Source of the DNA: Clostridia bacterium
GTDB lineage: Bacteria > Bacillota > Clostridia > TANB77 > CAG-508
Length of the DNA stretch: 64,000 nt
Assembly: GCA_017409455.1 (NCBI GenBank)
Contig: JAFQSS010000021.1
Span: forward strand, 45,673-109,672
Direction: 5' to 3'
The first letter of the stretch is position 1, and each line of letters starts with the position of its first letter. Both the position numbers and the translations under genes were made by a program. The notes beneath the pieces are model-generated. The model did no database searches, was not told the DNA's origin, and worked only from the letters and a program-made list of their open reading frames with translations. Shown here one piece after another: positions 4,566 through 58,939 of the stretch.

Positions 4566-4920
4566 AGGTCTCTGTTAGTAAATCTGTAAGCCGGGTTCTG
4601 TCATTTAAAATAGTCATTTATCTAGGACATATATCACTATATGCCTCAAGCCACGCAATTTAGAAGCGCCGAGCAGGCGTATTCTTCTATTTAGGTGTTG
4701 CTCCAGATGGGGTTTACACTGACCCAGTATGTCACCATACCAGCGGTGAGCTCTTACCTCGCCTTTTCATCCTTACCTCATAAGAGGCGGTTATTTTCTG
4801 TTGCACTTTCCTTAAGGTTTCCCTCACTAGACGTTATCTAGCATCTTTGCTCTTTGGAGCCCGGACTTTCCTCTCGTAGTTCCTTTCGAAATTTACCAGC
4901 GACTATTCAATTTACTAAAT
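4566..4920 (-). ncRNA. rnpB: RNase P RNA (type B, Firmicutes)
   Basis: The reverse complement contains the universally conserved P4 sequence AGGAAAGTCCGGGCTCCAAAG (plus 4848-4872 as CTTTGGAGCCCGGACTTTCCTC). The P1 pairing aatttactaaa/ttagtaaatct brackets a roughly 355-nt GC-enriched non-coding block. Confidence 0.85.
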
Positions 4921-13335: not shown

Positions 13336-13340
13336 AAAAA

Positions 13341-13534
13341 GCAACCCCGCCTTAGCCGTAAGATGTCTGAATTTTTAAGGACCTGTCTTGGACAGGTGGG
13401 TGCCTACTTAAATACTCATGGGCTTCTTACTACTATAAAGTGTAAGCATGCACGCCATATCTAAAGAATTTGGCCCCTCTTATAACTTGTAGGTTCTAAA
13501 AATTCTGCGCTACACGCACTATGCAGGGAATTGC
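13341..13534 (+). ncRNA. Candidate structured small RNA (6S-like long interrupted helix). Identity and strand uncertain
   Basis: A roughly 190-nt block is markedly GC-richer than its surroundings, has no ORF on either strand and sits between convergent genes. Its ends can pair (GCAA.CCC with GGGAATTGC, and GAATTTTTA at 13369-77 with TAAAAATTC at 13497-505), giving a long closing helix with internal bubbles. Confidence 0.3.
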
Positions 13535-18662: not shown

Positions 18663-19408
18663 TTAAAAATCTCCTTCTTTTGTTTTAAATTTTATTTTAA
18701 GATCAAATATCTTTATAACCCCATATTCGCTTGATACAACTCCAAAATTATTTAATAAGGTTGAAAATATATCAGATTTTATATCTTTGCCATCAGCATA
18801 TTCCTTTAGGCTTTTAAAATCAGTAAAATCGTATGTATCAATTAGTTCAATTTCAAAATTCCATTTATCTTCTTTATCTTTACTTGCTTTCACAAACATC
18901 GTTGCATCATGCAATGCATAAAGCAAATCACTGTTTTCAAATCTGATTAAAGTATCCTCTGTTGGTGCACCATCATCTACAATAAATTCCTTTTTGCCTT
19001 CTCCATATTTTTGTATTAATTGATTTATCTGTTCTTGAATGACTTACTATCAAGTATTAGGTTGGCTGTTTCCTTATCTTCTATAACCAAATCATTTGGT
19101 TCTTTTCCAAATGGAGCTAATGAATTAAGTAATAATTTTGCAGAAAGCTCTTTATTTGTTAATATTCCTCCTACAACAACAACTTGCCAAAATAGATTTT
19201 GCATTGAATAAAATACAGCATAAGAAATTGGATTTGATTTTTTGGTTACATCAAATATAAAGCTCATACTTTTTATATATTTTTCAGCAATTTCTTCATC
19301 TACTTTTTCCCAATTTATCTCTTTAATTTCTTTTAATAGTTCTTCGAATTTTTGTGAATAATTAAATAATTTATATATATCATTTAATGAAAAAGAAATT
19401 GTCTCCAT
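18663..19408 (-). pseudogene. Hypothetical gene split by an apparent frameshift (ORFs 19025..19408 and 18663..18926)
   Basis: The downstream ORF has no Met start (the track uses TTG). Its reading frame stays open upstream through ...QEQINQLIQKYGEGKKEFIVDDGAPTEDTLIRFENSDL... up to within about 10 nt of the TAA that ends the 127-aa ORF at 19025. A single-nt indel near 19025-19035 would fuse them into one roughly 245-aa protein. Confidence 0.4.
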
Positions 19409-24779: not shown

Positions 24780-26351
24780 TTATTTCAAATGATACAAATC
24801 ACAGGCATTTAGTCTTTCTAAATATGTCCAAGTTTCTAATCCTGTTGCTTTTCTTAATTTTTCTAAAATTTCATCATTTTCTTGTCCTTCGTTAATAAAA
24901 ACAATTATTCCTTTTGAAATGTCTTTATTATTAAAAATTGTTTTTATGTTTTGTTCTGTATATTCCATATCTCTAGCAATATATGATTCATTTAATATTG
25001 AAAATAATAGTATATCATCTAGAAATCTATTATTTTCTGAATTAAAGCAATAAATAGTTGGAAGGTTTAATTCTTCTCCTAATTTAGCAACAATTTCTTT
25101 TTTGTTTGAATATGCAACTTCTGACTCAATTTTGAATACAATTGGAGAAATTAATATTGCTACTAGAAATACTATCATTATTATATTTGATGCTTTTTCT
25201 TTAAAAATATTGAATAATAATTCACTTAAATAATATATCATTATTATAAAAATTGGTGTACATACTGGCATTACATATCTTAATTCTATCCAAGGAGATG
25301 CTACTGCTACTAATGTAAAATAAAATAATGTTGGGAATAATATATATTTTGCATATGAATTGCTATTTTCTATTAATTTTTGTTTTTTAATTAATTTATA
25401 TATTGCAAGTATAATTAATGCTACAGCTATTACATACATCAAATTATTAAATACATATAAATTTATTTTTTTCAAATATTCTTTTATACTTTCAGCAAAT
25501 TGTGGAATATTAATTAATTTACTTATTACGCCTTGACCTCTATATCCAAAAAACATATGTTGTATTGAATATGGAAATATTAATAAAGATAATATACCTG
25601 CAATTCCCATTGTTACAGTATAATATATTAATTCTTTATGTCTTTTTTCTTTTAAATATTTTATTGCAAACATTAAATATAGCATTGCTAAATAGAATAA
25701 ATAATAGTAATGTGTAAGTGAACCTATGAATGCTGATATTCCTATTAGAACTAATAATTTAGGTTTTATTTCTTTACTATCATATAATTTTATATGTAAA
25801 AATGCTGTTATTAATATATTTAATGCTGATAATGCATACATTCTTATATATATTACATTTGTTAATGATGACATTGTTATTGAAGAAATTAGTGCTAATA
25901 TAATTGATTTTTCTTTACATAATTGTTTTCCTTCAAGCAGTTTTTGTAATATTAAATATGTAAATATTGTTATAAAAATATATATTATTATATTTATTAT
26001 TATCCCTGGCCATTTTGAAAATGAATTTATGCTAAATCCCATAGCTATTCTTAGTAATATATAATATATTGGTGGATGTACATCATTTTTTTGATTTTCA
26101 TATACTTGGCTATATTCACCTATTTCATCATCATTTACTACTAAATAATCTTTATAATATTCTTTATTATGCCAATTACCATAAAAATCCTCATTGTCTT
26201 GGATTTCTACTTTATCGTAACTTGCTAATCCTAATGAATATGCTTCATCCATATGTATATATTCTTTGTTTGCTCCAACTATTATAAATATTATTGTTTG
26301 TATTATTAAAACAATTCCAATTATTAATATTTCTCTTTTTTTGTTTGACAT
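24780..26351 (-). CDS. GT-C fold membrane glycosyltransferase (PMT_2/ArnT-like)
   Basis: About 11 predicted TM segments. A DE motif in the first loop (YIHMDEAYSL) and an HPPIYY motif are typical of the PMT/ArnT family. C-terminal soluble domain. Confidence 0.55.
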   Translation of the reverse strand: MSNKKREILIIGIVLIIQTIIFIIVGANKEYIHMDEAYSLGLASYDKVEIQDNEDFYGNWHNKEYYKDYLVVNDDEIGEYSQVYENQKNDVHPPIYYILLRIAMGFSINSFSKWPGIIINIIIYIFITIFTYLILQKLLEGKQLCKEKSIILALISSITMSSLTNVIYIRMYALSALNILITAFLHIKLYDSKEIKPKLLVLIGISAFIGSLTHYYYLFYLAMLYLMFAIKYLKEKRHKELIYYTVTMGIAGILSLLIFPYSIQHMFFGYRGQGVISKLINIPQFAESIKEYLKKINLYVFNNLMYVIAVALIILAIYKLIKKQKLIENSNSYAKYILFPTLFYFTLVAVASPWIELRYVMPVCTPIFIIMIYYLSELLFNIFKEKASNIIMIVFLVAILISPIVFKIESEVAYSNKKEIVAKLGEELNLPTIYCFNSENNRFLDDILLFSILNESYIARDMEYTEQNIKTIFNNKDISKGIIVFINEGQENDEILEKLRKATGLETWTYLERLNACDLYHLK

Positions 26352-28910: not shown

Positions 28911-29528
28911 TTACATTGCTGCAGGCATGTCTCCATCTTCTGCTGGCAACATATCCATTCCTGGTAACATATCTTCTGGCATTTCTGGTTCTTCAGCAGA
29001 TCTTTCAAATTCTTGTCCTACTGAACCGGCTAATGTTTTGAAACTGTCATAAACTGTTTTTGCAGTTTGTTCATTTGACATTACAAGACAAACTACATCA
29101 CCACTTGCTACACTATAAATTTTTTCAGCTGTAACACAAATCCATTTTCTTTCATCAACGTTTTCATTCATTGATTTAGCAATAGCATCTGCATCTACAC
29201 CATCTTTTACTTTTACAAGCATTAATGAATATGCTTGTGATGTCATCATTGGTTCTGATGCTACTACATATTCTATATCATTAATGTTTTCAAGACCTGT
29301 AAAATATTTTACTGTTTCAGCATCAGTCATATCTAATTCTTGTGTCATTAGCATTGGCATTTCTATTGATACACCTTCATATATTTGATCAACTAATGCT
29401 GTTAAATCTTCAGCACTGTTAACACTTAAATTTGAAGCTGGTTTTGAATTCATCATAAGAATTACTCCAACTAATGCTACAACAGCTACTGCTACTACTG
29501 CAAGTATAATTTTTGTTGTTTTGCTCAT
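28911..29528 (-). CDS. DUF4358-like secreted/membrane-anchored hypothetical protein
   Basis: ORF 28911..29570. The likely start is MSKTTK at 29528 after AAAGGAG. One TM helix and an acidic C-terminal tail (PEDMLPGMDMLPAEDGDMP). Confidence 0.55.
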   Translation of the reverse strand: MSKTTKIILAVVAVAVVALVGVILMMNSKPASNLSVNSAEDLTALVDQIYEGVSIEMPMLMTQELDMTDAETVKYFTGLENINDIEYVVASEPMMTSQAYSLMLVKVKDGVDADAIAKSMNENVDERKWICVTAEKIYSVASGDVVCLVMSNEQTAKTVYDSFKTLAGSVGQEFERSAEEPEMPEDMLPGMDMLPAEDGDMPAAM

Positions 29529-29923
29529 GTTATTTCTCCTTTCATTTGTTAATATGGGGGCATACCCCATTTCACAAACTCATTATACTATAACCTCAAA
29601 AAATATGCAACTATTTTTATATTTGTTTTATAGTTTTGCCACACATTCCTGAAACTCAATTATATATTTTTTTAATTTCGTGATTGGTGTGAATTTTCCG
29701 TTTTTATTTTTACTATTTTATGGTTAAAAAAAACACCATATTCTATTATTTTTAACAACAAAACTCTTAATTTCAGAAGAATTTTGGCCCATTTAGTTGT
29801 TATTTTTGACAATTTATGGTGTTAAAATACACCATAAATTATTGAATTTAAAAACTTAAATCTAAAAAATTGCTTAACTTCCCAAAATTTATATTTACCT
29901 TCATACAATTTTATAACAAAAAA

Positions 29924-29970: not shown

Positions 29971-31434
29971 TTAATACAACTCTTTGATATCCCATGTTGT
30001 TCCATTTACTGTATCATTAAGAATTATTCCTTTTGAATCAAGGTCTGCTCTAATTTTGTCGGCTAGTTCGAAGTTCTTTTCTTTTTTAGCTGCTGCTCTC
30101 CTATTTATTTCATCAGTAATATAATTTGCTTCAAGTCCTATTTTGTTTAGATATTTTTCACGCATTTCTTGTACAAACTTTTCTGGTTCTTGTTTGAAAA
30201 ATCCTAATACGCTAAATACTTCTCTTATTTCATCTAAAATGCTTGCTAATGTATTTGCAATTTGTTGTCTATTGCTTTTATTAGCAAATTTAATTAAATT
30301 ATTTATATATTTAAAATCTACATGTAATTGTGCAATTGCAGCAGATGTATTAAAATCATCATCCATAACTTCTATGAATTTTTCCCTGATTTGGTCAGAA
30401 ATATCATCTTGAACTTTTTCACCATCTTTGTTTCCATTATATAAATTTATGAATTCTTTAATCTTAATTATAGTGTTATAAAAATAGTACATATGACTTT
30501 CTGCTAATTGATAGTCTTTGTCTAAAATATCTACATCTGATGCATAATGTTTTGAAAACATTACATATTTCAAAACTTCATAATTATACATTTTTAAAGC
30601 ATCTCTTATTGTTAATGAGTTCCCTAATGATTTACTCATTTTTTCTCCATTAATTTTAATTAAACCACAGTGTGACCAATATTTAGCAAATGGCTTTCCT
30701 GTAAATGCTTCACTTTGTGCAATTTCATTTTCATGATGTGGAAATACTAAGTCTCTTCCACCACCGTGAATATCAATTGTTTCTCCTAAGGTATTTAGTG
30801 CCATTACAGAACATTCTATATGCCATCCTGGTCTTCCTTTTCCCCAAGGAGATTCCCAATAAACTTCTCCAGGTTTTGCTGATTTCCAAAGTGCGAAATC
30901 AAGTGGATCTTCTTTGCTTTCTTCAAGTTCTACTCTTACACCATTTAATAAATCATCTACATTCCTATGTGAAAGCTTTCCATATTCATCAAATTTTCTA
31001 ACTTTATAATATACATCTCCATTTGGAGTTGAATATGCACTTCCTTTTTCAATAAGAGTTTGTACAAATTTGATTATTTCATCTATATATTCAGATGCTT
31101 TTGTTTTTATGTCAGCATCTGTAATATGTAAATCTGCCATATCTTTTTCTGTTTCAGCTATTTGCTCTTTTGAAAAGTCTAATGCATTTTTACCTAAGTC
31201 ATTAGCTCTTTTTATTATTTTATCATCTACATCTGTATAGTTTCTTACATATTTTACATTATATCCTCTAAACCTTAAGTAATCTGCAATCATTGCATAT
31301 ACTATCGCTTGACGTGCATGACCTATATGACTCAAATCATATACTGTTACTCCACATGCGTACATTTTTACATTGTTTCCATCTATCGGAACAAATTCTT
31401 CTTTTTTCCCTGTCATTGAATTATATATCTTCAT
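29971..31434 (-). CDS. cysS: Cysteine--tRNA ligase
   Basis: 487 aa with HIGH-type motif (SHIGHARQAIVYA) and KMSKSLGN. AGGAGGG RBS. Confidence 0.95.
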   Translation of the reverse strand: MKIYNSMTGKKEEFVPIDGNNVKMYACGVTVYDLSHIGHARQAIVYAMIADYLRFRGYNVKYVRNYTDVDDKIIKRANDLGKNALDFSKEQIAETEKDMADLHITDADIKTKASEYIDEIIKFVQTLIEKGSAYSTPNGDVYYKVRKFDEYGKLSHRNVDDLLNGVRVELEESKEDPLDFALWKSAKPGEVYWESPWGKGRPGWHIECSVMALNTLGETIDIHGGGRDLVFPHHENEIAQSEAFTGKPFAKYWSHCGLIKINGEKMSKSLGNSLTIRDALKMYNYEVLKYVMFSKHYASDVDILDKDYQLAESHMYYFYNTIIKIKEFINLYNGNKDGEKVQDDISDQIREKFIEVMDDDFNTSAAIAQLHVDFKYINNLIKFANKSNRQQIANTLASILDEIREVFSVLGFFKQEPEKFVQEMREKYLNKIGLEANYITDEINRRAAAKKEKNFELADKIRADLDSKGIILNDTVNGTTWDIKELY

Positions 31435-31454
31435 AGTTTTCCCTCCTTATATTC

Positions 31455-31492
31455 AAAAAGAACTATGTGTTCTTTTTTCGCCCACATAGTTC
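31455..31492 (-). terminator. Intrinsic terminator (attenuator) in the cysS leader
   Basis: On the minus strand, GAACTATGTG (31492-31483) pairs with CACATAGTTC (31469-31460) around a 13-nt loop and is followed by UUUUU (31459-31455). It lies 20 nt upstream of the cysS RBS. Confidence 0.7.
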
Positions 31493-31563
31493 TTATAATC
31501 AAAAATATAATCTCTATTGTAGGCATGATTATTAATACTCATATCTGCAATAGATAGAGTATT

Positions 31564-31605
31564 TTACCTACAACAACAATTAGCGATTATATTTCTTAAA
31601 TTCAT
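31564..31605 (-). CDS. cysS leader peptide MNLRNIIANCCCR (13 aa, three consecutive Cys codons)
   Basis: ATG at 31605 is preceded by GAGAGGAAG and lies about 25 nt downstream of a TTGACA-18-TATAAT promoter (-35 at 31666-61, -10 at 31642-37 on minus). Codons TGT TGT TGT AGG TAA at 31578-31564. Confidence 0.55.
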   Translation of the reverse strand: MNLRNIIANCCCR

Positions 31606-31646
31606 ATTAATCTTCCTCTCATTTTTGATATAGTATATTATATAAC

Positions 31647-31973
31647 TTATGTTGTGTTTTTGTCAATATTTTTTACAATTTTATACTTTTCACATTCTAT
31701 TTTTTCTGCCAAATATTTATCTAATACATGATTTTTTATCAAATCTTCTTTTTGAGCTTTAGTTAAAGTTTTTATTCTATATTCTAACTTTGAAGCTAAT
31801 ATTTTATTTTCTGATTCCCATACACATTCTAATTTTTGCGCTTTATGGCTCTTTGTATATTTTGCGCATTTGGAATCTTTGCCAAAATGTTCTTCCATTC
31901 GTCTTTTTACATCTGTTGTTATTCCTGTGTATATTGAATTATTTTCACATCTTAACATATAAGTGTAATACAT
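31647..31973 (-). CDS. GIY-YIG nuclease-superfamily small protein (UPF0213-like)
   Basis: MYYTYMLRCENNSIYTGITTDVKRRMEEH is a GIY-YIG motif. Start at 31973 after AAAGGGGA. Confidence 0.7.
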   Translation of the reverse strand: MYYTYMLRCENNSIYTGITTDVKRRMEEHFGKDSKCAKYTKSHKAQKLECVWESENKILASKLEYRIKTLTKAQKEDLIKNHVLDKYLAEKIECEKYKIVKNIDKNTT

Positions 31974-31986
31974 AAATTCCCCTTTT

Positions 31987-33132
31987 CTACTCATGTATTA
32001 TATCTTCTTCTTTTGGCATAGTTTCATTCTGGTTTGTGCTTCCTTGTGGTTTTAATTCAGCTAGACATTCATCTAAAAATTGCACTTCATTTTCATTTAG
32101 ACAAATATGCCTTTGAAATTCATCCCCTATAATTTTTCTTGTTTCTAAAATACTATATAGAGCTTCTCCCCATTCTTCAGATATTCCATTTCGTTTTGCA
32201 TTTTTTCGTAATATACGCACTTCTAAATCCTCTTCTAAGGATATCTGTTTACTCATTAAATTATGTACTATTGCAGTTGTATGAATAGCTGTTATTCCTA
32301 GTCTATCAAATTCTGGATTATACTTATAATAAACCCAACTTGCTGGTATTGTTTGTTGCCCCTCTTTAAAAGCCGTTGTAGCTTCTTTTATGGTTTTTCC
32401 ATATGTATTAATTGCTCTGTACATAAAAGTAAAATTTAGCTTATTTTTTACACAATATTCCAATAATGTTTCTCTATTTGGCAATTTAATATTTTCTCCT
32501 GCATTTTCACAAGGATACATTTCTTTAATTTGACTAATTGTAATTGCTTGATTTAACAAATTATTTAAAACACTATATTTTACACCGATTAATAATGACA
32601 AATCATATAAATCTAATGTAGCACCAGCTACATGTACTGTTTGGCTTTTTCTCATTTTATGCTTTGCCATAAATATTGCTTTATATATATGTTTTGTACT
32701 GTCAAAACATCTCCTTAAGTTGCCTGCATCTAATCCTTCAATTTTTGCGATTTCTCTTAATTCTAATCTCTGATTTTTGTATTCTATTTTTTTGCCTTCC
32801 TTTTGTTTCGTTCTCTCTTTTCTAGATTCTGCTCTTTCTTTACAGCTTTTAACAGCTTCGTATATATTTCCAATCTTTTTATAAGAATTTGTTAATGTCT
32901 CTATTCCTATATTTTCTTTTTGAGCAATTACACTTATTGCTAAGAGCTCTCCTTTATATTCTATTTTTTCTACTTTTCCTCTTGAATTTTGTCTACACAT
33001 CTTTACAGCTATATATATGTCTCCCGTTCGTTTGTAATATCTAGCTAATGTGATATCTATTAGTCCTTCTTTTTTAGCTATTGTTGCTAATGGTAATTGT
33101 TCTCCATTGTATTCTATTTTTTCAATTGACAT
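31987..33132 (-). CDS. Hypothetical protein with three N-terminal roughly 45-aa helix-turn-helix-like repeats
   Basis: Repeats KIEYNGEQLPLATIAKKEGLIDITLARYYKRTGDIYIAVKMC / KIEYKGELLAISVIAQKENIGIETLTNSYKKIGNIYEAVKSC / KIEYKNQRLELREIAKIEGLDAGNLRRCFDSTKHIYKAIFMA. Confidence 0.55.
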   Translation of the reverse strand: MSIEKIEYNGEQLPLATIAKKEGLIDITLARYYKRTGDIYIAVKMCRQNSRGKVEKIEYKGELLAISVIAQKENIGIETLTNSYKKIGNIYEAVKSCKERAESRKERTKQKEGKKIEYKNQRLELREIAKIEGLDAGNLRRCFDSTKHIYKAIFMAKHKMRKSQTVHVAGATLDLYDLSLLIGVKYSVLNNLLNQAITISQIKEMYPCENAGENIKLPNRETLLEYCVKNKLNFTFMYRAINTYGKTIKEATTAFKEGQQTIPASWVYYKYNPEFDRLGITAIHTTAIVHNLMSKQISLEEDLEVRILRKNAKRNGISEEWGEALYSILETRKIIGDEFQRHICLNENEVQFLDECLAELKPQGSTNQNETMPKEEDIIHE

Positions 33133-41916: not shown

Positions 41917-42678
41917 CTATTTTCCTATAAACATCTGTACATAGATTTTTCCGTACTTAGGACTATTTACTACACCAATTCCTGTATAGTTGTAATTACC
42001 ACTTAAAATATTGGCTTTATGTCCAGAAGAATTCATCCACGCATTTACAGCACCACTATTACTTGAATTTGCAGCAATGTTTTCTCCCGCAGTTTTATAC
42101 GAAACATTAAAACTTTTCAACATTTGAAATGGTGAACCATATGTTGGAGATTCGTGTGCAAAATAATTGTTATCTACCATGTCTTGTGCTTTTATTCTTG
42201 CAACTCTTTGTACTTCACTATCTATTTTTAGTGCAGAAAGGCCATTGTTTGTTCTTTGTTTGTTTATTAAATCAAATACTTCTTTTTCATCAGCAGTCAA
42301 AGAGGCTGTAGTTGTATTTTGATTCCCTGATGTACTACCACCAGTATTGGTTCCTGATGAACTCGGATAAATAGGTTTTACATATTTTTTACTTACTGCG
42401 CCAATATAATCTCCTTCAACTTGAACAATATACCATGTTCCAACTCCTGCAAATACTCTTATATATTCATTCTTTTTAACTGTTGCTACAATTTTATATT
42501 GTGTTCCAGGCCCACTCCTTACATTTAATTCTGTAGCAGTTACTAATCCTGTTGAAAAATCTACATTATAATAATGTTGCATTCCAAATGTTGTTGTATA
42601 TTTACATATCATTAATGCAAATATACTAATAACTATGGTTTTTAAAATGTTTTTCTTTTTTATGGTTACGACTTTCAT
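41917..42678 (-). CDS. Secreted SH3b plus CAP (SCP/YkwD-like) domain protein
   Basis: Signal/TM at the N-terminus, then an SH3-like segment (GLVTATELNVRSGPGTQYKIVATV) and a C-terminal CAP domain (FAHESPTYGSPFQM...GENIAAN...GHKANIL). Confidence 0.7.
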   Translation of the reverse strand: MKVVTIKKKNILKTIVISIFALMICKYTTTFGMQHYYNVDFSTGLVTATELNVRSGPGTQYKIVATVKKNEYIRVFAGVGTWYIVQVEGDYIGAVSKKYVKPIYPSSSGTNTGGSTSGNQNTTTASLTADEKEVFDLINKQRTNNGLSALKIDSEVQRVARIKAQDMVDNNYFAHESPTYGSPFQMLKSFNVSYKTAGENIAANSSNSGAVNAWMNSSGHKANILSGNYNYTGIGVVNSPKYGKIYVQMFIGK

Positions 42679-55894: not shown

Positions 55895-56061
55895 TAAATT
55901 TATTCTCCTTCGCATCTATTTTATCACGAATGTTGCATATTTTCAACAAATTTTGAACTGTTAATTTGATTGAATTAACAGTAAATTTTTTAATATTTTT
56001 TTATCAAAAACATTGACTTTATATTTTAAATATGTTAATATATACATTGTCTATTAAATAT

Positions 56062-56145
56062 GCGGATGTGGCGGAACTGGCAGACGCGCTGGTCTTAGGA
56101 ACCAGTACCAACGGTGTGGAGGTTCAAGTCCTCTCATCCGCACCA
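56062..56145 (+). tRNA. tRNA-Leu (anticodon UAG), type II with a long variable arm and encoded CCA
   Basis: GCGGATG acceptor stem, anticodon stem-loop CTGGT-CTTAGGA-ACCAG, long variable arm, T-arm GGTTCAAGTCC and 3' CATCCGC-A-CCA. Confidence 0.9.
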
Positions 56146-56218
56146 AAAGATTAAATCGTCGCACCAGACGATAACCAAGAAATCAACTGTAAAAGGTTGA
56201 TTTTTTTGTTACCTTTTA

Positions 56219-56524
56219 TTGAAAAAGAAGGGATGGTGTGATATGATAAGTATCGTAAAGAAGAAAAACAAGATAAGCAGAGATTTACTCTCTAAGATTG
56301 AATGGGCTTGCCGTTTGAATTCTATAAAATTTGAACACCAAATGATATTAGAAGGTTGTTTGAGAGTTATAGAACACACAAACTTGGCGTATGTAGAGCC
56401 ACATAGAGTAATTATTAAGAATAATTTATATTTATTCTTTAATGAACATGATTACTTTTATGTGGGAGATTTAAGGACTAAATATCCTTTATCTAAACTA
56501 CAAGAATACATAGCAAGGCATTAA
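56219..56524 (+). CDS. Hypothetical protein (first gene of the island)
   Basis: 101-aa ORF with a TTG start after AAAGG. Confidence 0.4.
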   Translation: MKKKGWCDMISIVKKKNKISRDLLSKIEWACRLNSIKFEHQMILEGCLRVIEHTNLAYVEPHRVIIKNNLYLFFNEHDYFYVGDLRTKYPLSKLQEYIARH

Positions 56525-56596
56525 TTTTAGAGTTTTTAGAATTGCTTTTAATATAGAATATAAAACTTTAAAAAGTGCCAATAGTTATGTGATTAG

Positions 56597-58460
<1,864 letters not shown>

Positions 58461-58606
58461 AAAATAATAGGAAAAATTTATGCTTAAAATGATTTTCATA
58501 CTCCTACTGGAATCCTAACAAGCACTGAATTTTTCCTCCCTAGTCAAAATTCGAATTATGGGACTTAGTCCCAAACCCTATATAAAAAATGAAAGGAAGA
58601 TGAACT

Positions 58607-58939
58607 ATGATATTAAAAAATAATAGTGAAAAAGTAAAAATTTTAGTAAGATATTTTGAAACTTTAAGTATAGAAAATCAATTAAAATTATTTATAATTG
58701 TTTTAGAAAGTGACATGATAAAATTAAAAATTGACAAAGAAAATTTGATTGAACTTTTAAAAAATTTCTTATGTATTTTTGATAAGAACTATAACAAAAA
58801 TAGAATGGTAACTTTAGAATTTAATATGGATGTTTTTATATTATCCAAAGTTATGGAGATGAATGAAACAGAAAAAGAAAGTTTTGTTTTTGAATTATTT
58901 TATAATATTTATTGTATCATTTTACAAAAAAATAAATAA
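58607..58939 (+). CDS. Hypothetical protein
   Basis: 110-aa ORF with an AAAGGAAG RBS. Confidence 0.45.
   Translation: MILKNNSEKVKILVRYFETLSIENQLKLFIIVLESDMIKLKIDKENLIELLKNFLCIFDKNYNKNRMVTLEFNMDVFILSKVMEMNETEKESFVFELFYNIYCIILQKNK

Follow-up and report, generated by a model that had tools for sequence, protein, structure and literature searches.

A candidate cysteine leader-peptide attenuator upstream of cysS in a narrow clade of Clostridia

The DNA considered here, a 64-kb stretch of contig JAFQSS010000021.1 (the whole of which is called the window in what follows), belongs to a metagenome-assembled genome of an uncultured Clostridia bacterium of the gut. It is part of a 282-kb scaffold in an ENA metagenome assembly and has a GC content of about 28%. 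Its minus strand carries cysS, the gene for cysteine--tRNA ligase (529 bits against TIGR00435, cut-off 340), and between the promoter and the coding sequence lies a leader with a short open reading frame (ORF) that contains three consecutive cysteine codons, followed by an intrinsic terminator. In Firmicutes the genes of aminoacyl-tRNA synthetases (aaRS) are usually controlled by a T-box. For this cysS the first-pass annotation of the window had proposed a ribosome-mediated cysteine attenuator instead of a T-box, and the results described below make an attenuator of that kind likely. The promoter, Shine-Dalgarno (SD), ORF, terminator and cysS elements on which the proposal was built were all recovered on the minus strand where they had been placed. 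They are given here in the order of transcription.

31637-31666, minus strand: sigma-70-type promoter, TTGACA (31666-31661), 18-nt spacer, TATAAT (31642-31637), 12/12 consensus
31612-31620, minus strand: SD sequence of the leader ORF, GAGAGGAAG, 6 nt 5' of the ATG, duplex with the anti-SD -10.5 kcal/mol
31564-31605, minus strand: leader ORF of 13 codons plus stop, read from the sequence as MNLRNIIANCCCR
31570-31578, minus strand: UGU UGU UGU, codons 10-12 of the leader ORF, proposed sensing codons
31455-31492, minus strand: terminator, GAACUAUGUG, 13-nt loop, CACAUAGUUC, UUUUU, extending to a 12-bp stem of -17.2 kcal/mol
31441-31448, minus strand: SD sequence of cysS, AAGGAGGG, -12.2 kcal/mol
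29971-31434, minus strand: cysS, cysteine--tRNA ligase of 487 amino acids (aa), TIGR00435, the putatively regulated gene

The promoter is the sole 12/12 consensus match within 29.5-33.5 kb, and its -35 hexamer is held in the last codons of a gene for a small GIY-YIG protein that lies upstream of cysS. Transcription would start at about 31631, which was taken as index 1 for the numbering of the leader on the minus strand. The leader ORF is preceded by a 5' untranslated region (UTR) of 26 nt. In 77% of the long ORFs of the window the duplex with the anti-SD is weaker than the one formed by the SD sequence of this ORF, which is unpaired in the predicted folds. The ORF reads ATG AAT TTA AGA AAT ATA ATC GCT AAT TGT TGT TGT AGG TAA. 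Cysteine accounts for 1.4% of the codons in the long ORFs of the window, and three consecutive cysteine codons (Cys1, Cys2 and Cys3) at a given position would be met by chance with a probability of about 1e-5 or less. Two identical TGTTGTTGT sites elsewhere in the window (19173-19181 and 42589-42597) were considered as further leaders and rejected, as they lie within or antisense to long ORFs; eight other matches to TGYTGYTGY were outside this check.

The U tract of the terminator ends the leader 21-25 nt 5' of the cysS start codon, an ATG at 31434 on the minus strand. The cysS SD sequence is located 3' of the terminator, and it is unpaired in all folds and not sequestered. No space for a separate promoter was noted between the terminator and cysS when the sequence was read by eye, no dedicated scan being made. 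As cysS stands so close behind a terminator of -17.2 kcal/mol, with no room noted for a promoter of its own, readthrough would have to be provided. A consensus terminator scanner did not report the hairpin, for the sole reason that its loop limit is 8 nt. That the hairpin merely terminates the upstream GIY-YIG operon was considered and rejected: the promoter intervenes, and leaderless relatives have no terminator there. For the entire 206-nt leader the folding energy is -49.8 kcal/mol, that of shuffles being -29.2 +/- 3.8 (z = -5.4); the shuffles used here and below for the leader preserved the dinucleotide composition.

An Rfam search of the window at the gathering threshold (93 bits for RF00230) gave no T-box anywhere, and in 31350-31750 none of the Rfam families, the T-box included, gave a meaningful match even at E<=10. 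This agrees with the first-pass annotation, which had looked for the T-box consensus in the cysS leader without finding it. The same search gave T-boxes of 93-113 bits upstream of cysS in four other loci (L048 Caloramator, L050 Caryophanon, L013 and L126), which served as a positive control.

The sequence between the leader ORF and the terminator can pair in two mutually exclusive ways. The segments involved are the following.

31565-31576, minus strand: segment 1, UUGUUGUAGGUA, index 56-67, 5' arm of the putative anti-antiterminator
31534-31563, minus strand: central hairpin, index 69-98, -9.3 kcal/mol
31514-31525, minus strand: segment 2, UGCCUACAAUAG, index 107-118, pairs with segment 1 or with segment 3
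31480-31494, minus strand: segment 3, AAGAACUAUGUGGGC, of which 31489-31480 is the antiterminator 3' arm and 31494-31483 the terminator 5' arm
31455-31469, minus strand: segment 4, CACAUAGUUCUU, terminator 3' arm and U tract (UUUUU, 31459-31455)

Segment 1 consists of the last base of Cys1, the whole of Cys2, Cys3 and the Arg codon and the first two bases of the stop codon. In the unconstrained minimum free energy (MFE) fold it forms a 12-bp helix with segment 2 around the central hairpin, and the terminator is formed by index 138-149 with index 163-174. The duplex of segments 1 and 2 has an energy of -13.7 kcal/mol when arms of 12 nt are taken, and of -14.9 kcal/mol at best in a wider window of 15 nt (31578-31564). 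A ribosome was simulated as a mask of 28 nt with Cys1, Cys2 or Cys3 in the A site, and the transcripts were cut before segment 4. With the mask on any of the three codons the MFE structure became a pairing of segment 2 (index 108-118) with segment 3 (index 143-152, CUAUGUGGGC). This pairing is a helix of 10 bp in which one A is bulged; it has a hairpin energy of -13.4 kcal/mol and takes up the terminator's 5' arm. Segment 3 was paired upstream with a probability of 0.15 without a ribosome and of 0.69-0.9 with a mask on a Cys codon. When the 69-nt spacer was shuffled 3000 times, the energy of the 2:3 pairing was matched in 41 cases and that of the 1:2 pairing (15-nt window) in one; both on one overlapping segment were matched in none.

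Terminator and antiterminator thus exclude each other, a point that the first-pass annotation had suggested to test by folding the region, and the anti-antiterminator overlaps the Cys codons. The alternative pairing that it had pointed out itself, CUCUAUCUAUUG with CAAUAGAG, does exist: it forms a hairpin at index 79-118 (CUCUAU.../...AUAGAG, -8.5 kcal/mol) in some constrained folds, where it excludes the hairpin at index 69-98. The key switch, however, is UUGUUGUAGGUA/UGCCUACAAUAG/CUAUGUGGGC, and by these predictions the hairpin at index 79-118 is a secondary alternative and not part of the core switch. Between the stop codon of the leader ORF (index 66-68) and segment 2, which follows 39 nt downstream, there is an extra hairpin.

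The distribution of the leader was studied in about 175 cysS upstream regions, and the leader itself was searched for with blastn-short in the window and 176 loci (designated by L numbers). Scans of contigs for CysS gave a best identity of 72% among genome contigs and 49% among metagenome contigs. Closer relatives, many of them 78-96% identical, came from a CysS search of a large protein collection, and the contigs of fifteen of these were fetched. Six strains, which come from four samples, carry the leader before cysS (the window, which is L081, and L172, L162, L173, L174 and L177); their CysS proteins are 92-100% identical. The variants of the leader peptide are MNLRNIIANCCCR, MNLRSIIANCCCR, MKFRNIIANCCCR and MKIRNIIANCCCR. 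The leader-bearing sequences group in a single clade when a neighbour-joining tree is made of cysS, and among the approximately 175 upstream regions short ORFs with at least three consecutive Cys codons occur only in this clade. Every existing leader ORF keeps the three Cys codons, and the distant orthologues lack the leader as a whole, so that an orthologous leader without Cys codons, which the first-pass annotation had named as evidence to the contrary, was not encountered.

Elsewhere in the survey, a human-gut contig (L128) whose CysS is 45% identical has a 29-codon ORF, MTEVADYCYDNKIINEGCGGCGGCCGPQK, about 69-159 nt 5' of cysS, with six Cys codons including one pair. The Rfam search found no T-box at this cysS locus. 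The ORF may be an unrelated cysteine-sensing leader or a product of chance.

Conservation of the leader was compared with that of its surroundings. From its start to the U tract the leader is 91-99% identical between strains, whereas the third codon positions of cysS are 71-85% identical (p<=2e-5 for every leader-bearing pair). Averaged over pairs of strains, identity amounts to 96.6% in the leader, as against 74% in the 18-nt promoter spacer and 77% in the 22 nt from the U tract to the cysS ATG; both promoter hexamers are kept in the relatives despite the divergent spacer. These values indicate that the leader is under strong and sharply bounded purifying selection. Within it, 2 of the 51 columns in the switch segments are variable as compared with 23 of 130 in the rest (Fisher p=0.01). 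One of the two changes is a substitution in the terminator stem, where a G-U pair is preserved, and the other is the loss of one base from the U run. Segment 2 is invariant in all seven relatives, including L176, which is described below.

In the ORF of the six strains the SD sequence, the ATG, the frame and the Cys triplet are invariant, no insertions or deletions are found, and a stop codon is always present, UAA being replaced by UAG in L177. It could be imagined that the 13-residue peptide is itself the functional product, as a thiol-rich, metal-binding or modified micro-protein with a hairpin that ends its own transcript, and the invariant C-terminus IIANCCCR would fit such a role. Residues 2-5, however, vary freely (N/K, L/F/I, N/S), the 110 non-coding nt after the ORF equal it in conservation, genes for modification or export are not found next to it, and the unit of ORF and terminator blocks the only promoter of an essential gene. 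A peptide with a function of its own is therefore highly improbable.

It would also be conceivable that the leader is a structured RNA switch that senses another factor (a ligand, a protein or uncharged tRNA) and that the ORF is incidental to the pairing sequence. Cys2 and Cys3 lie within a helix arm and are perhaps conserved for pairing alone, conservation at about 97% extends over the entire leader and not just over the ORF, and the sole covariation is in the central hairpin. Such a switch nevertheless leaves unexplained why a strong SD sequence is kept invariant and unpaired together with the ATG, the frame and the stop (UAA to UAG), and it would make the run of three cognate codons a coincidence of about 1e-5. 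Moreover, the leader gave no Rfam match at E<=10 in a search that does find T-boxes before cysS in other Firmicutes, and its antiterminator has a bulge of 1 nt, which is not that of a T-box. We regard a switch made of RNA only as unlikely.

The relatives outside the clade bear on the origin of the leader. In the nearest sisters, L163 (CysS 91% identical) and L164/L165 (88%), the same promoter is present and the start of cysS follows within about 25 nt, without a leader; the GIY-YIG neighbour of cysS is found in L163 as well. The start codon of cysS in L163 and L164 is TTG and not ATG (position 1501). In L166 (84%) the interval (L166:1440-1500) contains a Cys-free upstream ORF (uORF) of 11 codons, TTG AAA TTT ... 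TGG AGG TAA (MKFLIHRKEWR), whose stop codon overlaps the cysS SD sequence. The more distant L168-L171 (80%) and L001/L002 (72%) have unrelated cysS 5' UTRs, and L001/L002 lack the leader. None of the leaderless relatives of the clade that were examined (L163-L166, L168-L171 and L001/L002) has a T-box according to the Rfam search. As the nearest sisters have the same promoter but no leader, the attenuator appears to be a recent gain on a simple promoter, made once by parsimony. This does not fit the part of the original proposal according to which the attenuator stands in place of a T-box: the closest relatives have neither T-box nor leader, their promoter abuts the ribosome binding site (RBS), and the attenuator was added to a simple promoter. 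By this distribution the attenuator is evolutionarily young and confined to a clade of at least about 92% CysS identity.

The uORF of L166 and the TTG starts of L163 and L164 suggest that the interval from promoter to start has been remodelled repeatedly, by deletion or duplication between (A/T)TGAAA repeats. Counted from the -10 box, the leader ATG is only a few nt more distant than the start of cysS in the leaderless sisters. An origin of the leader start as a duplicate of the cysS start was considered as well, the leader of L177 beginning with MKI like CysS and the RBS regions being alike; at 28% GC the resemblance is indistinguishable from chance, and the idea was left as speculation only.

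One further relative, L176 (CysS 92% identical; L176:1336-1503), has a rearranged upstream region. Promoter, ORF and segment 1 are gone and a different gene, of 601 aa, lies upstream, while a stretch of 90 nt with segments 2-4 and the terminator matches the window at 100% identity. The antiterminator fold was predicted for this leader even at full length. According to the model this truncation would be the one kind that leaves cysS expressed. Taken together, the data on sisters and on L176 might be read as showing an attenuator shortly after its birth: about 170 nt, with the SD-led mini-ORF of three Cys codons and the switch, would have been put as a block between an existing consensus promoter and the RBS of cysS, within a divergence of about 10% in the cysS nucleotide sequence, later to be strongly selected and, in at least one strain, partly dismantled. 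We offer this tentatively, as possible rather than probable.

The same data bear on the idea that the unit from promoter to terminator is an independent small RNA (sRNA) of about 175 nt, or a dual-function gene for an sRNA and a mini-protein, with cysS being expressed by constitutive leaky readthrough. A consensus promoter and a strong terminator do bracket 175 highly conserved nt, which relative to the sister lineages were inserted as a block. In every strain, however, the unit separates the cysS RBS from the one promoter that can be seen for cysS, its antiterminator overlaps the terminator arm and is governed by the segment with the Cys codons (0/3000 shuffles), L176 retains exactly the part needed for readthrough, and neither a second copy nor a target-like sequence was found in the window. 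An independent sRNA is thus very unlikely.

Finally, the leader could be a recent, non-functional palindromic insertion, like a miniature inverted-repeat transposable element (MITE), that brought a terminator along and contains the ORF by chance. The region is prone to insertions, as unrelated palindromic insertions lie beside the leader in L162 and L174, and the whole leader folds as a long imperfect hairpin. Yet conservation is far higher in the leader than at synonymous sites or in the sequences that directly flank it, a neutral terminator before an essential gene would be deleterious, and no other copy is present in the 64-kb window or about 175 other loci, so that this explanation is hardly credible. 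The blastn-short search, which gave this absence of a second copy, did show a match of 24 nt at 58578-58601 on the plus strand, 92% identical to the 5' UTR and SD region of the leader (CTATATAAAAAATGAAAGGAAGAT), just 5' of an ORF of 110 aa (58607-58939). There is no Cys run and no terminator at this place, and the match probably reflects a shared SD context.

The sequence comparisons and the predicted folds together make it likely that the cysS leader is a leader-peptide (ribosome-mediated) transcription attenuator, by which the transcription of cysS is coupled to how much Cys-tRNA(Cys) is available. The elements by which the class is recognized were all found in silico: a short ORF with its own SD sequence, tandem cognate codons, an intrinsic terminator and a competing antiterminator. 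The original proposal of a ribosome-mediated cysteine attenuator is in this respect supported in silico, as ORF, SD sequence, frame, stop and Cys triplet are kept in the six leader-bearing relatives, the folds compete and the leader is under purifying selection. We infer that the leader is translated, that ribosomes stall at the Cys codons, that the hairpin terminates transcription and that the outcome responds to cysteine. In this mechanism transcription would begin at the consensus promoter, and a ribosome would load on the strong SD sequence and translate MNLRNIIANCCCR. If Cys-tRNA(Cys) is scarce, the ribosome would stall with a UGU in the A site and cover segment 1 (UUGUUGUAGGUA). Segment 2 (UGCCUACAAUAG), left free, would pair with segment 3 (CUAUGUGGGC) once this is transcribed; with the 5' arm of the terminator occupied, the polymerase would enter cysS. 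If Cys-tRNA(Cys) is plentiful, the ribosome would complete the 13 codons and depart, and a leader that is not translated would have the same outcome. The free segment 1 would then take segment 2, segment 3 would pair with segment 4 and the transcript would end at the U tract.

Several points weigh against this interpretation. In equilibrium folds a ribosome mask at the stop codon also yields the antiterminator, so that a ribosome stalled at Cys and one at the stop codon are not separable by equilibrium folding. The stop codon is 39 nt away from segment 2 and a ribosome there masks segment 1; termination in the replete state would therefore need either fast release of the ribosome or a kinetic trap, for which the hairpin at index 79-118 is a candidate. 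Release would have to precede the synthesis of segment 3, that is, within about 75 nt of transcription. The 13-nt loop of the terminator is long, which is accounted for by the antiterminator arm (GGGC) that reaches into it. The clade is narrow and its sequences are phylogenetically non-independent. Because segments 1-4 have no informative variation in the seven sequences, covariation speaks neither for nor against the key helices, and because Cys2 and Cys3 form part of segment 1 they could have been conserved only for the pairing of the RNA. Of the covariation that the first-pass annotation had suggested to look for in relatives, one A-U to G-C change was found in the central hairpin, which is the only helix with such a signal and has two G-U changes besides; the key helices show none.

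Some of the leader-bearing loci have peculiarities of their own. In the 95% relative L162 an insertion of about 115 nt (L162:1366-1480) is located in or just after the U tract of the terminator, before the cysS RBS. It contains a 17-bp inverted repeat (1428-1444/1449-1465) and has a CTTTTTGA-like sequence on both flanks; it has no Rfam match. It resembles a small mobile palindromic element, and the flanks may be a target-site duplication. In L174 a long palindromic, MITE-like insertion is present at approximately 1020-1270, between the GIY-YIG gene and the cysS promoter, with outer arms CTCTGAGCTGGAGTATATAT... and ...ATATATACTCCAGCTCAGAG and inner arms of 25 nt that are 92% complementary. The leader also affects gene calling. 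The 13-codon ORF is not among the gene calls of L081, the one leader-bearing locus whose listing covers it. In L172 (L172:1501-1554) the CysS protein P0002 was called as 505 aa, with its start at an in-frame ATG in the 5' arm of the terminator (CUAUGUGGGC). The 18 extra N-terminal residues are an annotation artefact of the leader, and this probably holds also for P0003, which likewise has 505 aa. The leader thus causes mis-annotation, some calls extending cysS by 18 codons into the terminator.

Near cysS, three ORFs on the minus strand, 31987-33132 (381 aa), 28911-29570 (219 aa) and 24780-26351 (523 aa), have no Pfam match; those of 381 and 219 aa have no NCBIfam match either, and their counterparts are placed in the same way in several relatives. 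Rfam and ARAGORN gave only three hits in the window: a class A RNase P RNA at 4571-4918 (minus strand, 287 bits), a 6S RNA at 13340-13532 (minus strand, 83 bits) and a tRNA-Leu gene at 56062-56145 (plus strand). At about 56000-57300 the genes switch from almost all minus (about 3.5-56 kb) to plus, and the GC skew changes from about -0.27 to +0.10. Such a flip of strand and GC skew is the pattern of a replication origin, or possibly a terminus.

The leader described here has predicted precedents, and its unusualness was overstated in the first-pass annotation, which had called the solution an unusual one for a cysteine aaRS: Cys leaders on cysS had already been predicted in Rhodobacterales (PMC8632094) and in Deinococcus deserti (PMC4007540). 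The literature searched, the coverage of which was incomplete, contained no description of such a leader before a cysS gene of Firmicutes. The leader described here is most likely an independently evolved member of this already predicted type and, as far as the literature searched goes, new for Firmicutes. If the attenuator reading is true, a Cys-codon leader on cysS would have been invented independently for the third time, after Rhodobacterales and Deinococcus. The main value of the present case is evolutionary, as leaderless relatives with the same promoter and a natural partial deletion provide ready comparison alleles. Should the birth of an attenuator have been caught as well, these would be the 'before', 'after' and 'broken' alleles for the de novo origin of ribosome-sensing attenuators on an aaRS gene.

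The closest predicted counterpart is the uORFC-8-2 motif, of which 145 representatives upstream of cysS were described in Rhodobacterales, as a prediction (Brewer et al. 2021, PMC8632094). It likewise precedes cysS; its first stem contains a uORF with tandem Cys codons, an intrinsic terminator follows, and stalling was proposed to allow readthrough (PMC8632094). It differs from the present leader in that it belongs to Alphaproteobacteria and has two Cys codons, mostly UGC, at about positions 14-15, whereas three UGU codons occupy positions 10-12 in the Clostridia. No sequence relationship between the two was detected, in the sense that no Rfam family matched; no stand-alone model of the motif was scored. 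Because the leader is absent from the nearest sisters, it was not inherited from an ancestor shared with Alphaproteobacteria, which points to an origin independent of uORFC-8-2. In Deinococcus deserti attenuation was proposed for a cysS 5' leader that encodes a peptide of 10 aa with two Cys (de Groot et al. 2014, PMC4007540). That ORF is leaderless, transcription starting at the AUG, whereas the ORF described here has a 26-nt 5' UTR with an SD sequence and three Cys codons.

Polycysteine small ORFs (sORFs) in mycobacteria, predicted earlier (Seliverstov et al. 2005, PMC1262725), have been found experimentally to respond to cysteine; they are leaderless, act on translation and are located on cysteine metabolism operons (Canestrari et al., bioRxiv 10.1101/834739). 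As proposed for the cysS leader, the stalling of ribosomes on the Cys run of a short upstream ORF reports the cysteine supply. The mycobacterial sORFs, however, unmask a downstream RBS, have no intrinsic terminator and do not precede cysS, whereas in the present case the terminator would be the effector and the cysS RBS lies outside the structure.

With the T-box (RF00230) the leader shares its position in the 5' leader of an aaRS gene, the choice between terminator and antiterminator, and, in the proposed mechanism, tRNA charging as the signal. Stem I, the specifier loop, the T-box sequence and the antiterminator with a 7-nt bulge that contains UGGN are all absent from it, and whereas the T-box binds the tRNA directly, sensing is here proposed to be done by the translating ribosome.

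Among Firmicutes, leader-peptide attenuators are known for histidine (PMC2965389, PMC9413887), and the cysS leader would, if confirmed as an attenuator, enlarge the small set of ribosome-mediated attenuators in this group, so far concerned with histidine. An SD-led ORF with a run of cognate codons within segment 1 is common to it and to trpL, hisL and pheM-pheST of E. coli and the Firmicute His leaders. The alternative pairings 1:2, 2:3 and 3:4 and the intrinsic terminator are shared with the classical attenuators too, and in pheST the regulated gene is likewise that of the cognate aaRS. In trp a ribosome at the stop codon occludes segment 2, a detail of that system which does not define the class; here it does not do so, the stop codon being 39 nt away. 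What distinguishes the cysS leader from the classical attenuators is that cysteine would be the amino acid sensed, by an element that appears to be young and restricted to one lineage.

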